This document shows, piece after piece, positions 5,907 through 62,462 of a DNA stretch of 64,000 bases. The notes below the pieces were generated by a model that was not told the DNA's origin, did no database searches, and was given only the letters and a program-made list of their open reading frames with translations. Each line of letters opens with the position of its first letter. Positions within the stretch are counted from its first letter, which is position 1. The stretch lies in assembly GCF_013122565.1 (NCBI RefSeq), contig NZ_CP053258.1. One strand, written 5' to 3'. Source of the stretch: Escherichia coli. GTDB lineage: Bacteria > Pseudomonadota > Gammaproteobacteria > Enterobacterales > Enterobacteriaceae. Made by a program: the position numbers and the translations under genes.

Positions 5907-6797
5907 TTATTTCGCCTGGCTACGGGCAAACAGGTCGTCGAGCTTCTCTTCGTACTGGTAGTAGTTGATGCTTTCGTACAGCTCGTTGCGGGTTTGCATG
6001 GTGTCGATGACACTTTTCTGCGTGCCTTCCTGACGCAGGACGTTGTAGACATGTTCAGCGGCGCGGTTCATGGCACGGAACGCTGAAAGCGGGTACAGCG
6101 CCATTGCGACATGGGCGCTGCGTAATTCGTCGGTGGTAAACAGCGGTGTTGCGCCAAATTCGGTAATATTGGCGAGGATCGGCACCTGCACCGCATCGGC
6201 AAACTGGCGGTACATGGCGAGTTCGGTAATTGCTTCCGGGAACAACATCTCGGCACCCGCTTCAACATAGGCCTGCGCACGCTCAATCGCCGCATCCAGT
6301 CCTTCAACCGCCAGCGCATCGGTGCGCGCCATGATCACAAAATCAGGATCGGTTTTCGCATCCACCGCCGCACGGATCCGATCCACCATTTCCTCTTTCG
6401 AGACGATCGCTTTGTTCGGACGATGACCGCAGCGTTTCGCGCCAACCTGATCTTCAATATGCAATCCTGCCGCACCGGCTTTAATCATCGATTTCACGGT
6501 ACGCGCCACGTTAAAGGCCGAAGAACCAAAACCGATATCCGCATCCACCAGCAGCGGCAGCGAACAAACGTCGGTGATACGGCGAATATCAGTCAGCACA
6601 TCATCAAGAGTAGAAATACCGAGATCGGGCAGCCCCAGCGACCCTGCCGCCACGCCACCGCCGGAAAGATAAATTGCCTGATATCCGGCACGCTGCGCCA
6701 ACAGCGCATGGTTGGCGTTAATGGTGCCAACAATCTGCAATGGATTTTCTTTAGTCAGTGCAGCGCGAAACGCTTTACCTGGAGAGTGTAGAGACAT
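5907..6797 (-). CDS. prpB: 2-methylisocitrate lyase
   Basis: 296-aa [51 protein letters not shown]... Confidence 0.93.
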
Positions 6798-6841
6798 AGC
6801 CCATCCTTTGTTATCAACTTGTTATTTTCGTTGATAAAGAC

Positions 6842-6862
6842 AAAGCAAGGGGTGTGCCACAA
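6842..6862 (-). promoter_or_regulatory. sigma-54 (-24/-12) promoter of prpBCDE
   Basis: Minus strand reads TGGCAC-acccc-TTGC (reverse complement of 6845-6859), a match to the TGGCAC-N5-TTGC consensus about 50 nt upstream of prpB start; PrpR is a sigma-54 activator. Confidence 0.75.
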
Positions 6863-7035
6863 TTGCCTTAATAAAATTAAATCTTTAATTTCAATTTGTT
6901 AGAGATAAAGTCATGAACTAATCCGCAAATATGCGTTTCAGTTAACGTTTCAGGCAATGTTTCACCGCGTTTCATTGCAACAATTATGAAACAAGACTAA
7001 ACCCAATATTCGGTTTCTTAACTTTGCGGTGCGCT

Positions 7036-8622
7036 ATGGCACATCCACCACGGCTTAATGACGACAAACCGGTTATCTGGACGGTATCTGTAACGCGCCT
7101 GTTCGAGCTGTTTCGCGATATCAGCCTCGAGTTTGATCACCTGGCGAACATTACCCCTATTCAGCTTGGCTTTGAAAAAGCAGTGACCTATATCCGCAAG
7201 AAACTGGCAAACGAACGCTGCGACGCCATCATCGCTGCTGGCTCTAACGGCGCGTACCTGAAAAGCCGCCTGTCAGTGCCAGTTATTTTGATTAAACCGA
7301 GCGGCTACGATGTGTTACAGGCACTGGCAAAAGCCGGAAAGCTCACCTCTTCTATCGGCGTTGTCACTTATCAGGAAACTATTCCGGCACTGGTGGCGTT
7401 TCAAAAAACCTTTAACTTGCGCCTCGATCAACGTAGCTACATTACCGAGGAAGACGCACGCGGGCAGATTAACGAGCTGAAAGCTAACGGCACCGAAGCG
7501 GTGGTCGGCGCGGGGCTGATTACCGATCTGGCAGAAGAAGCCGGAATGACCGGAATTTTTATCTATTCCGCCGCCACCGTGCGCCAGGCATTCAGCGATG
7601 CGCTGGATATGACGCGCATGTCGTTACGCCATAACACTCACGATGCCACCCGCAACGCCCTGCGTACTCGTTACGTGCTGGGCGATATGCTCGGTCAATC
7701 ACCACAGATGGAACAGGTGCGGCAGACTATTTTGCTGTATGCCCGCTCCAGTGCAGCGGTGTTGATTGAGGGGGAAACGGGGACGGGCAAAGAGCTGGCG
7801 GCCCAGGCGATTCATCGGGAATATTTTGCCCGCCACGATGCGCGACAGGGCAAAAAGTCGCATCCGTTTGTTGCCGTCAACTGCGGGGCGATTGCCGAAT
7901 CGCTGCTGGAAGCAGAGCTGTTTGGCTATGAGGAAGGGGCGTTCACCGGCTCGCGACGCGGAGGTCGCGCCGGGCTGTTCGAAATTGCCCACGGCGGTAC
8001 GCTGTTTCTGGATGAGATTGGCGAAATGCCGCTACCTTTGCAGACTCGCCTGTTACGGGTGCTGGAAGAAAAAGAGGTCACCCGCGTCGGCGGGCATCAG
8101 CCTGTTCCGGTAGATGTACGGGTCATTAGCGCCACTCACTGCAATCTGGAAGAAGATATGCAGCAAGGACGTTTTCGCCGTGATCTGTTTTATCGGCTGA
8201 GTATTTTGCGTCTGCAATTGCCACCACTCCGCGAGCGGGTGGCGGATATTCTGCCGCTGGCGGAAAGCTTTTTGAAAGTGTCTCTGGCGGCGCTCTCCGC
8301 CCCGTTTTCTGCCGCATTACGCCAGGGATTACAGGCAAGCGAAACCGTGCTGATGCACTACGACTGGCCGGGCAATATTCGTGAACTGCGCAATATGATG
8401 GAGCGACTGGCGCTGTTTTTAAGTGTGGAACCGACGCCGGATTTAACGCCGCAATTTTTGCAATTGCTACTGCCGGAACTGGCGCGCGAGTCGGCGAAAA
8501 TTCCCGCTCCACGCTTACTGACACCACAACAGGCACTGGAGAAATTTAATGGCGATAAAACAGCAGCGGCGAATTATTTAGGTATCAGCCGGACGACGTT
8601 CTGGCGGCGGCTGAAAAGCTGA
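7036..8622 (+). CDS. prpR: sigma-54-dependent propionate catabolism activator PrpR
   Basis: Start taken at [15 protein letters not shown] (ORF track begins 12 nt earlier at TTG); AAA+ motifs GETGTGKE and GAFTGS; C-terminal HTH. Confidence 0.9.
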
Positions 8623-9832: not shown

Positions 9833-10078
9833 CTACGTAATCAACCTGATTTGCCGAATCCCGACCATCGGCGATGATAGCCCCCGTAATGCGTGGTCCT
9901 TATTTCCGATAAGTTTACTTGAGTCTTTAGCTTCCCATTTCAGCCCACTCTCCCCTGTGTGGGCTTTTTTCATTGGTCTGACCCGTCCTGAATAGCCAAA
10001 CAATGGCAATGTTCCACTTTGCAGGGATGATAATAAGGGGATCTGATTCAGAAGAGTTTTGAAAAGTTGGACCGCCAT
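9833..10078 (-). CDS. yahM: small hypothetical protein (81 aa from internal Met; yahM position)
   Basis: ORF track 9833..10108; assignment by position and length only; contains the yahN terminator and overlaps a tRNA-like element, so coding status is doubtful. Confidence 0.4.
   Translation of the reverse strand: MAVQLFKTLLNQIPLLSSLQSGTLPLFGYSGRVRPMKKAHTGESGLKWEAKDSSKLIGNKDHALRGLSSPMVGIRQIRLIT
9943..9970 (+). terminator. rho-independent terminator downstream of yahN
   Basis: Stem gcccac/gtgggc with 10-nt loop followed by TTTTTT. Confidence 0.6.
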
Positions 10079-10148
10079 CGAGGCCTCGAACCCCGTACCA
10101 TACAACAATCCTGGTTGTCGTCTGCTCTTCCTGATGAGCTAATGGCGG
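10068..10148 (-). other. tRNA-like element (possible tRNA pseudogene or relic attachment site)
   Basis: Minus strand: acceptor stem CCGCCAT/ATGGCGG (7 bp), D-arm GCTC-ATCAGGAA-GAGC, T-arm CGGGG-TTCGAGG-CCTCG, encoded CCA; anticodon region atypical (ACAAC-CAGGATT-GTTGT, A at position 33) with extra nucleotides. Confidence 0.5.
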
Positions 10149-26352: not shown

Positions 26353-26414
26353 CCAGTATCCCCACTGTTATTGTTACCATTTAAAATCAAATTCGCAACA
26401 ATTAAGACACATTT

Positions 26415-43732: not shown

Positions 43733-43808
43733 TGGTGCCGATAAGAGGAGTCGAACCTCCGACCTTCGCATTACGAATGCGCTGCTCTACCAACTGAGCT
43801 ATATCGGC
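43733..43808 (-). tRNA. thrW: tRNA-Thr (anticodon CGU)
   Basis: Minus strand GCCGATATAGCTCAGTTGGTAGAGCAGCGCATTCGTAATGCGAAGGTCGGAGGTTCGACTCCTCTTATCGGCACCA; full cloverleaf, anticodon loop TTCGTAA, encoded CCA. Confidence 0.92.
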
Positions 43809-46479: not shown

Positions 46480-46497
46480 CTGTAATATATCTTTAAC
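46480..46497 (+). promoter_or_regulatory. Pho box (PhoB binding site) of phoE promoter
   Basis: CTGTAATATATCTTTAAC, about 80 nt upstream of phoE start. Confidence 0.65.
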
Positions 46498-46578
46498 AAT
46501 CTCAGGTTAAAAACTTTCCTGTTTTCAACGGGACTCTCCCGCTGAATATTCGCGCGTTAATTAAAATCAGGAATGAAA

Positions 46579-61501: not shown

Positions 61502-61640
61502 GGTCGGATGCGGCGTGAACGCATTATTCGGCCTTCGGTTCGCGTACAGATTTGTAGGCATGATAAGACGCGTCAGCGTCGCATCAGGCATCAGCGCACA
61601 AATGCTGGATGCGGCGTAAACGCCTTATCCGGCCTACGCC
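61502..61640. repeat. BIME (three REP units) between yafJ and gmhA
   Basis: ggtcggatgcggcgtgaacgc..., gtaggcatgataagacgcgtcagcgtcgcatcaggca, tgctggatgcggcgtaaacgccttatccggcctacgcc. Confidence 0.75.
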
Positions 61641-62223: not shown

Positions 62224-62462
62224 GAGGATATCCTTCAGCATAAATGTAATAGACAAAATGCAGTGTACCGGATACCGCCAAAAGCGAGAAGTACGGGCAG
62301 GTGCTATGACCAGGACTTTTTGACCTGAAGTGCGGATAAAAACAGCAACAATGTGAGCTTTGTTGTAATTATATTGTAAACACATTGCTAAATGTTTTTA
62401 CATCCACTACAACCATATCATCACAAGTGGTCAGACCTCCTACAAGTAAGGGGCTTTTCGTT

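Follow-up and report, generated by a model that had tools for sequence, protein, structure and literature searches.

What is the function of the sequence that lies between the sigma-54 promoter of prpBCDE and the start codon of its first gene, prpB? The locus is part of a 64,000-nucleotide stretch of Escherichia coli DNA (contig NZ_CP053258.1; hereafter the window). A preliminary description had drawn attention to an inverted repeat and to a match to the integration host factor (IHF) consensus just downstream of this promoter, and had suggested that they may form an operator or an mRNA hairpin affecting prpB translation. We find that the operator is plausible, although the element that is conserved and supported is a direct repeat, TGTTA-N6-TGTTA with 11-bp phasing, and not the palindrome. 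Judging from the sequence, we put at about one in two the probability that the prpB leader carries an operator at which phosphorylated ArcA (ArcA-P) would repress prpBCDE when respiration is unavailable. The elements on which the argument turns are listed below, signed positions being relative to the predicted transcription start (+1).

5907-6797, minus strand: prpB, open reading frame for 2-methylisocitrate lyase (296 amino acids), annotated as prpB in E. coli genomes
6804-6808, minus strand: Shine-Dalgarno sequence AAGGA of prpB, read from the sequence
6808-6825, plus strand (antisense to prpB): ArcA-box-like direct repeat TTGTTATCAACTTGTTAT, TTGTTAT-N4-TTGTTAT, at +9 to +26
6831-6837, plus strand: candidate weak third repeat TTGATAA, at -4 to +3, in the promoter-proximal arm of the palindrome; 5.4 bits on a 7-mer matrix
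6833, minus strand: predicted prpB transcription start (+1), 36 nt 5' of the ATG; a prediction only
6844-6859, minus strand: sigma-54 promoter of prpBCDE, TGGCAC (6859-6854), ACCCC, TTGCT (6848-6844), at -26 to -11 from the predicted start
7036-8622, plus strand: prpR, sigma-54 enhancer-binding activator, divergent from prpB, with its ATG at 7036

An ArcA-box-like direct repeat abuts the prpB Shine-Dalgarno sequence

The ArcA box is an 18-bp motif composed of two direct repeats whose centres are 11 bp apart, and one to three more are often present at 11 or 22 bp (Park 2013, PLoS Genet 9:e1003839). In the prpB leader, a first repeat (DR1, 6808-6814) abuts the Shine-Dalgarno sequence and a second (DR2, 6819-6825) follows with a start-to-start distance of 11 bp. 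The ArcA matrix was rebuilt from 115 of the 128 boxes defined by chromatin immunoprecipitation and sequencing (ChIP-seq; Park 2013 Table S3), and reproduced the published scores within ~0.7 bit. On this matrix the leader box scores 16.1 bits, the training set having a mean of 15.8, a standard deviation of 2.7 and a minimum of 9.6. Only four sites in the 64-kb window reach 15 bits or more, the leader box and the published fadE box among them. When a simple ArcA consensus was used, the leader box showed 2 mismatches over 14 positions and only four sites in the window matched as well. Two sites served as internal positive controls: TTGTAATTATATTGTAAA at 62363-62380 is identical to the published fadE ArcA box, and ATGTGTCTTAATTGTTGC at 26395-26412 is one base off the published betT box.

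The leaders of prpB relatives were compared with dinucleotide shuffles of the 60 nt located 5' of the ATG. The box exceeded the shuffles with P values of 0.001 or less in Escherichia, Kluyvera, Citrobacter, both Salmonella subspecies, Pseudocitrobacter and two Providencia leaders, and with P values of 0.005-0.04 in Morganella, the other Providencia, Photorhabdus and two of the three tested Xenorhabdus leaders. The test was not significant for the third Xenorhabdus leader and for a metagenome-assembled genome of the Enterobacteriaceae. Shimwellia and most tested Betaproteobacteria gave P values of at least 0.35; Duganella reached 0.035, but with a box of only 4.1 bits.

The distance from DR2 to the start of the candidate third repeat is 12 bp in E. 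coli, 11 bp in E. albertii and 13 bp in Citrobacter. At putP, footprinting showed no protection of a third repeat spaced at 12 bp (Park 2013), which makes binding to the third repeat of E. coli doubtful. We also considered the start-site GTTGA as a third ArcA repeat and discarded it, as it is 8-10 bp from DR2 and off-register.

The box keeps its phasing, position and orientation in Enterobacterales

A scan for prpB relatives yielded a comparative set of 80 loci from species-representative genomes. In enterobacterial leaders, TAACAA-like motifs on the sense strand (TTGTTA on the antisense strand) lie 11 bp apart just 5' of the Shine-Dalgarno sequence. The best box is antisense in nearly all of the 59 Enterobacterales loci and mostly starts 27-32 nt before the ATG, a placement that is kept even where the palindrome is absent and the flanks are unalignable. 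The box is present in Escherichia, Citrobacter, Kluyvera, Salmonella, Pseudocitrobacter, Providencia, Morganella, Photorhabdus and Xenorhabdus; it is absent from Oxalobacteraceae leaders, and the prpB leaders of Betaproteobacteria score below ~5 bits. This pattern follows the taxonomic distribution of ArcA as it is generally understood, with Shimwellia as the one exception.

When the spacing was left free by using a 7-mer matrix and 17 spacings, 14 of 18 Enterobacterales representatives had their best pair at 11 or 22 bp, 11 bp being the best for the prpB leader of the window, while the best-pair spacing was random in Betaproteobacteria. The starts of the repeats relative to +1 are the following in representative leaders.

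Escherichia albertii: +3, +14, +25
Pseudocitrobacter: +5, +16, +27
Morganella morganii: -1, +10, +21
Morganella psychrotolerans (11-nt insertion): -1, +10, +21, +32
Photorhabdus: -1, +21

The M. psychrotolerans leader (L053/L066) corresponds to that of M. morganii (L031/L037) with 11 additional nucleotides, which add one in-phase TTGATAC half-site. An in-phase repeat of the Morganella, Photorhabdus and Xenorhabdus leaders lies partly 5' of +1 and is untranscribed; that some repeats are located upstream of +1 argues that the element acts at the DNA level. Conservation between genera is concentrated on the G/T positions of the ArcA matrix, the spacer being variable (Spearman 0.57, p = 0.013; top base identical at 15 of 18 positions); this test has a circular component, as it was the ArcA matrix that selected the boxes. 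What the sequences show is the match to the ArcA box, the 11-bp phasing and the conserved position and orientation.

The sigma-54 promoter places the predicted start inside the palindrome

The prpB-prpR intergenic region is 238 bp long, near-identical to that of K-12 and identical to it at the sigma-54 promoter. The 701 bases around the palindrome have a match in 5,219 of 5,426 complete E. coli genomes, with 90-99% identity and annotated prpR and prpB, and a PrpB homologue search gave, among the matches listed, near-identical E. coli proteins only. On the prpB strand the leader region reads, 5' to 3', TGGCACACCCCTTGCTTTGTCTTTATCAACGAAAATAACAAGTTGATAACAAAGGATGGGCTATG. The exact motif TGGCACN5TTGCW has a single match in the window, which is the prpBCDE promoter. 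In E. coli K-12 this motif is located under a sigma-54 ChIP-seq peak (Bonocora 2015), and also under a peak obtained by genomic systematic evolution of ligands by exponential enrichment (gSELEX). The prpB start is given as 19 bp past the motif centre and 36 bp from prpB (Bonocora 2015 Table 1), with the EcoCyc status 'Predicted', and counting the C of the GC element as -12 also gives +1 at 6833. The supplement of a Salmonella differential RNA sequencing (dRNA-seq) study lists a start for prpR and none for prpB. Neither a sigma-70-like promoter nor a terminator was found in 6700-7150.

The spacer of the sigma-54 promoter reads CACCCCT in the window and TACCCCT in Citrobacter, Kluyvera and E. 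albertii (e.g., ~2438-2444 in L005). We take TACCCCT to fit the NarL heptamer TACYYMT, probably by coincidence, a resemblance that is of note in view of the nitrate dependence of prpB expression in Salmonella.

The palindrome is real and confined to one clade

The two arms of the palindrome are as follows.

6811-6818: Shine-Dalgarno-proximal arm, TTATCAAC on the plus strand and GTTGATAA in the prpB sense, at +16 to +23; it comprises the end of DR1 and the DR1-DR2 spacer
6830-6837: promoter-proximal arm, TTATCAAC in the prpB sense, at -4 to +4; only its TCAAC is invariant in the Escherichia/Citrobacter/Kluyvera clade

The inverted repeat of TTATCAAC (6811-6818) and GTTGATAA (6830-6837, plus strand) was correctly described: its arms are complementary at 8 of 8 positions and separated by 11 nt. 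It does lie between the -12 element and the prpB ATG, but only half of it belongs to the 5' leader, as the promoter-proximal arm covers -4 to +4 if transcription starts at 6833. Searching for the exact pattern gave a single match in the window and 0 in 100 shuffles, in a test that was chosen post hoc after seeing the sequence. Against shuffled sequences, the inverted repeat stands out at the DNA level with p = 0.02 for Escherichia and p = 0.013 for Citrobacter.

A single copy of the core ATCAAC-N10-12-GTTGAT occurs at this position in each of 19 loci, which all belong to Escherichia, Citrobacter or Kluyvera. In an alignment of 21 sequences of these three genera, the promoter is near-invariant and positions -10 to -3 and the loop are variable. 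The sense sequence TAACAAGTTGATAAC is invariant save for single substitutions in L017 and L071, and one substitution (L071) is the only change that affects the start-site TCAAC and its complement in the DR1-DR2 spacer. By our estimate chance would give ~15 perfect 8-bp inverted repeats with loops of 5-20 nt in 64 kb, and the local p is only ~0.02, as would befit a functionless by-product of an A+T-rich leader; a core that is invariant across three genera amid variable neighbouring positions makes such an origin extremely unlikely.

The palindrome does not behave as the target of a palindromic dimeric repressor: the gap between the arms is 10, 11 or 12 nt within the clade, and variation in the outermost 2-3 bp of the promoter-proximal arm is not mirrored in the opposite arm. 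No such inverted repeat was found in the leaders of Salmonella arizonae/diarizonae, Pseudocitrobacter, Morganella, Providencia, Photorhabdus and Xenorhabdus. These data indicate that the palindrome is real and conserved, is confined to one clade and is unconvincing as an RNA element.

Could the core be a separate element of this clade, laid over the direct repeats and serving either as an operator for a dimeric regulator or as a structure, in the DNA or in the nascent RNA, by which open-complex formation or promoter escape is gated? The invariance of the TCAAC pair while -10 to -3 and the loop vary, the occurrence of the core only at the start-site position in its 19 loci, and the excess over shuffled sequences in Escherichia and Citrobacter would all be accounted for, as would the invariant spacer, which ArcA does not explain. 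Moreover Shimwellia, which has no ArcA-like box, has a different inverted repeat at the same place. However, a spacing that ranges from 10 to 12 bp sits poorly with a rigid dimer, one arm varies uncompensated in its outer 2-3 bp, the repeat is missing from Salmonella, Pseudocitrobacter and more distant genera, and no known regulator motif was recognised in the palindrome. We consider a separate element rather unlikely.

Two further inverted repeats were observed. In the Shimwellia pseudoproteus locus (L070), TATTGCG-N12-CGCAATA is located ~45 nt 5' of prpB, which starts at 2501; it folds at -11.6 kcal/mol (p = 0.01) and its upstream arm precedes the predicted +1. In the window, an imperfect outer repeat (6795-6811 versus 6840-6856, 13 of 17 positions complementary) has one arm in the Shine-Dalgarno and start-codon region (ACAAAGGATGGGCTATG) and the other in the spacer and -12 region of the sigma-54 promoter (CACACCCCTTGCTTTGT); this promoter arm is untranscribed from the predicted start.

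The predicted transcript forms a short stem only

The mRNA hairpin suggested in the preliminary description was not supported once the predicted start site was taken into account. Folding the sequence between -10 and the ATG, which is a fairer test of the repeat than the post hoc pattern search, yielded -8.2 to -8.4 kcal/mol (z ~ -2.6), and 1-2% of shuffled sequences fold as well. However, the transcript from the predicted +1 begins with CAACGAAAAUAACAAGUUGAUAAC. Because 6833 lies inside the upstream arm, 4 nt of this arm are transcribed and the mRNA can form only the 4-bp stem CAAC/GUUG, with an 11-nt loop and -2.0 kcal/mol (z -0.9, 36 of 200 shuffles being as good; a second test gave z -1.2). 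RNAalifold recovered a 6-bp stem with 0 compensatory changes, and two substitutions break pairs (U-U and A-C), although covariation is a weak test here as most of the 6 stem pairs never vary. In all lineages the leaders from the predicted +1 are unstructured, folding no better than shuffled sequence, and Rfam has no family in the prpB leader, either at the gathering threshold or at E values up to 10. What a 5'-untranslated-region (UTR) hairpin would require, i.e., two transcribed arms (with respect to a start that is itself predicted), a folding energy beyond that of shuffled sequences and compensatory changes, is not what we observe.

A 5'-terminal stem can stabilise an mRNA, as in the ompA 5' UTR. 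The prpB inverted repeat resembles such stem-loops in beginning about at the first transcribed nucleotide, where the conserved part of the arm, (A)TCAAC, also begins; it differs from them in that only 4-6 bp around a 10-12-nt loop are transcribed, with ~ -2 kcal/mol and no covariation. A start located at least 4 nt further upstream would allow an 8-bp stem (-8.2 kcal/mol, z -2.7). Nevertheless, control of prpB translation or mRNA stability by a 5' hairpin made by the palindrome appears very unlikely: from the predicted +1 only CAAC pairs with GUUG, an energy equalled in 36 of 200 shuffles, both substitutions are pair-breaking with no compensation, the stem excludes the Shine-Dalgarno sequence, and the other lineages have no hairpin.

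The IHF-consensus match is embedded in the box

The IHF-like features of the intergenic region are as follows.

6812-6824, plus strand: IHF-consensus match TATCAACTTGTTA, at +10 to +22, embedded in the ArcA-like box
6875-6901, no strand assigned: A+T-rich block with three overlapping one-mismatch IHF-like cores, at -42 to -68; flanks 73-93% A+T

As first noted, TATCAACTTGTTA fits the consensus WATCAANNNNTTR exactly. The window contains 7 matches to WATCAANNNNTTR versus 2.95 expected, so that the motif alone is weak evidence of a site. The core is spelled by T-ATCAA (the end of DR1 and the spacer), CTTG, and TTA inside DR2, and it is intact only where the whole ArcA-like box is identical, i.e., in Escherichia, Citrobacter and Kluyvera; it carries 1-2 mismatches in Salmonella and 3 in Pseudocitrobacter. 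Its 15-nt 5' flank is 53% A+T, short of an A+T-rich tract, and its position at +10 to +22 is not between enhancer and promoter. The block at 6875-6901 occupies that interval, between the PrpR enhancer and the promoter, and contains for example the core TTTCAATTTGTTA at 6889-6901 with a 93% A+T flank; from its sequence and placement it is likely the IHF bend site, a putative assignment. The palindrome AAATTAAA/TTTAATTT (6874-6891) is located in the same region.

IHF is required for prpBCDE expression in Salmonella, as relayed by papers citing Palacios & Escalante-Semerena 2000. Taken with the exact consensus match, this requirement could be read as binding of IHF to TATCAACTTGTTA in the leader, which would also account for the invariant TCAA spacer of Escherichia, Citrobacter and Kluyvera. 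The core, however, has decayed in Pseudocitrobacter and also in Salmonella, the organism in which IHF was shown to be required, its flank has 53% A+T compared to 73-93% at upstream sites that are placed for looping, and a sharp bend at +16 is ill-suited to activation. When compared to the IHF bend sites of sigma-54 promoters (glnHp2, nifH, pspA), the leader site is similar in its exact match to WATCAANNNNTTR and in belonging to a promoter that needs IHF, but it is located past +1 instead of between enhancer and promoter, has no A+T-rich flank and is not kept where the requirement was shown. We consequently regard IHF binding in the leader as highly improbable, the better-placed sites being those at 6875-6901.

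The half-sites resemble ArcA boxes more than Pho boxes

We propose that the direct TGTTA repeats on the strand opposite to prpB would be an operator bound by an OmpR/PhoB-family response regulator, with ArcA-P as the most likely candidate. Like ArcA-repressed promoters (icdA, sdhC, fadE, lldP), the prpB promoter has direct TGTTA-type repeats at 11 bp with the score of an average site and further repeats at 11 or 22 bp, and it serves an oxidative catabolic pathway. Unlike them, it is sigma-54-dependent, its box is located past +1 by the ribosome-binding site and not over -35/-10, and no ChIP peak is reported at prpB. The box occupies +9 to +26 from the predicted start and the weak repeat -4 to +3; the published statistics on ArcA site positions concern sigma-70 promoters only. 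We take the astC, argT, potF and ddpX operons to be sigma-54-dependent, and hence to provide a precedent for the combination of an ArcA box with sigma-54. ArcA boxes are reported near each of them (Park 2013 Table S3).

The 11-bp direct-repeat layout is common to the family, and the similarity between ArcA and PhoB boxes was noted by Park 2013; another family member, e.g., PhoB, might thus bind the phased repeats. In the window, CTGTAATATATCTTTAAC at 46480-46499, in the phoE-proB intergenic region, has 3 mismatches to the Pho consensus. The ArcA matrix gives a 17.3-bit match at 46482-46499 which is the phoE Pho box on the opposite strand, showing that the matrix cross-reacts with OmpR/PhoB-family sites; this weighs against assigning the leader box to ArcA. 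A PhoB study using chromatin immunoprecipitation with microarrays (ChIP-chip) reportedly found PhoB binding at prpR. A PhoB ChIP-chip paper (PMC3465305) names prpR five times and prpB twice. The prpB box shares with the Pho boxes of phoE and pstS two 7-bp direct repeats with an 11-bp period, as well as the cross-match of the matrix. It differs from them in its half-site, TGTTA(T/A/C) instead of CTGTCAT: it has 6 mismatches out of 18 to CTGTCATAWAWCTGTCAY, a level reached by 97 sites of the window and thus background, and the diagnostic C is present in no lineage, position 5 of the repeat being T or A and the C of TGTCA occurring in 0 of 50 orthologous repeats. Binding of PhoB or of another family member instead of ArcA is accordingly improbable.

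Resemblances to the sites of other regulators (DnaA, Fur, the Nac/LysR-type T-N11-A motif, Cra, FadR/GntR-type regulators, OmpR, PhoP, CpxR and NarL), all fit worse than ArcA. CsrA was discarded as the leader has only one GGA, and pairing with Spot 42 or FnrS as it amounts to generic complementarity to the Shine-Dalgarno sequence.

A model for ArcA-mediated repression of prpBCDE

In the model that we favour, ArcB would phosphorylate ArcA when respiration is unavailable, and ArcA-P dimers would bind +9 to +26, possibly spreading towards +1, and block open-complex formation or early elongation. Such a block is expected because remodelling of the sigma-54 closed complex by PrpR requires that the DNA at +9 to +26 move into the cleft of the polymerase. 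prpBCDE would then be off even with prpR expressed and propionate present. The palindrome and the IHF-like motif would be by-products, one arm being made of DR1 and the spacer and the other being the weak start-site repeat. The identity of the protein and the repression itself are what we infer from the box.

Published data on the locus are in part consistent with this model. ArcA globally represses carbon-oxidation pathways, mostly by occluding the polymerase-binding region (Park 2013 and further literature). In an anaerobic arcA deletion strain prpR is up 2.9-fold (Park 2013 Table S5), and prpR is among the seven operons with no ArcA ChIP signal but with a predicted box of at least 15 bits upstream, given with no coordinates (Park 2013). 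In anaerobic Salmonella, propionate alone induces prpR, and prpB and prpC also need nitrate (Shelton 2022). This nitrate requirement fits an ArcA lock on the prpBCDE promoter; it can also reflect a failure to make the co-activator 2-methylcitrate.

Several observations, in addition to the cross-reaction of the matrix, weigh against the proposed role of ArcA. First, no ArcA binding was seen at prpR by ChIP-seq or ChIP-chip in anaerobic glucose medium (Park 2013), the ArcA supplements of Federowicz 2014, of Evans 2011 (Salmonella) and of a 2023 mBio study have no prpB or prpR entry, and neither an ArcA effect on prpB itself nor an ArcA footprint at the locus was found in the literature consulted. 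Second, the invariant TCAAC in the spacer and at the start site of Escherichia, Citrobacter and Kluyvera is unexplained by ArcA. Third, the Shimwellia leader has no box, the only such case among genus-level leaders of the Enterobacteriaceae. Fourth, the prpB start site is predicted, not mapped. Fifth, the distance of the box is steadier to the Shine-Dalgarno sequence than to the promoter, the box being at +9 in Escherichia and as far as ~+33 in some Providencia; this drift counts against simple promoter occlusion, which would not predict it. Finally, the site predicted by Park 2013 may be a second box, in front of prpR, rather than the leader box.

6977-6994, minus strand: second ArcA-box-like match TTGTTTCATAATTGTTGC, 16.2 bits, 42-59 nt 5' of the prpR ATG

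This second box overlaps PrpR half-sites. By analogy with Salmonella, in which the prpR transcription start is 27 nt 5' of the prpR ATG (dRNA-seq supplement), it probably overlaps the prpR core promoter as well. It may be a cross-match to PrpR sites, since comparable matches in other genera all contain TGTTTCA.

The fact that the distance is kept to the ribosome-binding site leaves room for a role at the RNA level, in which the sense sequence UAACAA-N5-UAACAA, 5' of the Shine-Dalgarno sequence, would be a translation enhancer, a standby site or a site for Hfq or a small RNA (sRNA). The leaders from +1 are uniformly unstructured, as such a role would have it, and post-transcriptional control of prp is suspected in Salmonella; Neisseria prpB and prpC are reported to be sRNA targets. 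The strict 11/22-bp phasing is unexpected for an RNA motif, though, one in-phase repeat is untranscribed in Morganella, Photorhabdus and Xenorhabdus, and the leader contains no Rfam family. We know of no enterobacterial sRNA partner of the prpB leader. Like binding of PhoB, an RNA-level function is therefore improbable.

The PrpR enhancer and other features of the window

The remaining regulatory element of the intergenic region is the enhancer.

6933-6993, no strand assigned: PrpR enhancer, repeated GTTTCA(T)/ATGAAAC half-sites

For PrpR enhancers, CGTTTCATGAAACG has been published as the consensus. The array comprises direct CGTTTCAG copies at 6934 and 6946, with a 12-bp spacing, and inverted pairs at 6958-6964/6987-6993 and 6969-6975/6986-6992. 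PrpR half-sites also occur in leaders: GTTTCAT is found between the TAACAA repeats of Xenorhabdus and Photorhabdus (L030, L025), ~20-30 nt 5' of prpB, and ATGAAAC in Janthinobacterium leaders. A PrpR half-site downstream of the promoter is unexpected. A scan with the CRP consensus gave only a 3-mismatch site at the prpR start, which is at chance level.

Elsewhere in the window, Rfam identified naRNA4 (CssrE, 74.5 bits) at 61557-61634 on the minus strand and a tRNA at 43733-43808 on the minus strand, which ARAGORN assigned as tRNA-Thr(CGU). ARAGORN also called a tRNA-Ser(GGA) at 10068-10148 on the minus strand; it is not in Rfam at the gathering threshold and is maybe a false call.

Implications for propionate catabolism

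An ArcA-P operator at prpB would join a well-known class and was partly anticipated by Park 2013. The gain is incremental, as the expression data and the predicted site of that study had already given hints that ArcA controls the prp locus. If the model is correct, it would nonetheless provide a documented case of ArcA acting past the start site of a sigma-54 promoter. It would also be relevant to the use of propionate-inducible pPro vectors under oxygen limitation, if these vectors carry the leader too. At the level of regulation, respiratory status would feed straight into a promoter that integrates 2-methylcitrate (through PrpR), sigma-54, IHF and cAMP-CRP. The nitrate-dependent behaviour of prpB and prpC bears on colonisation of the inflamed gut, and the operator, if it is one, would give a simple molecular reason why enteric bacteria break down propionate only with an electron acceptor.

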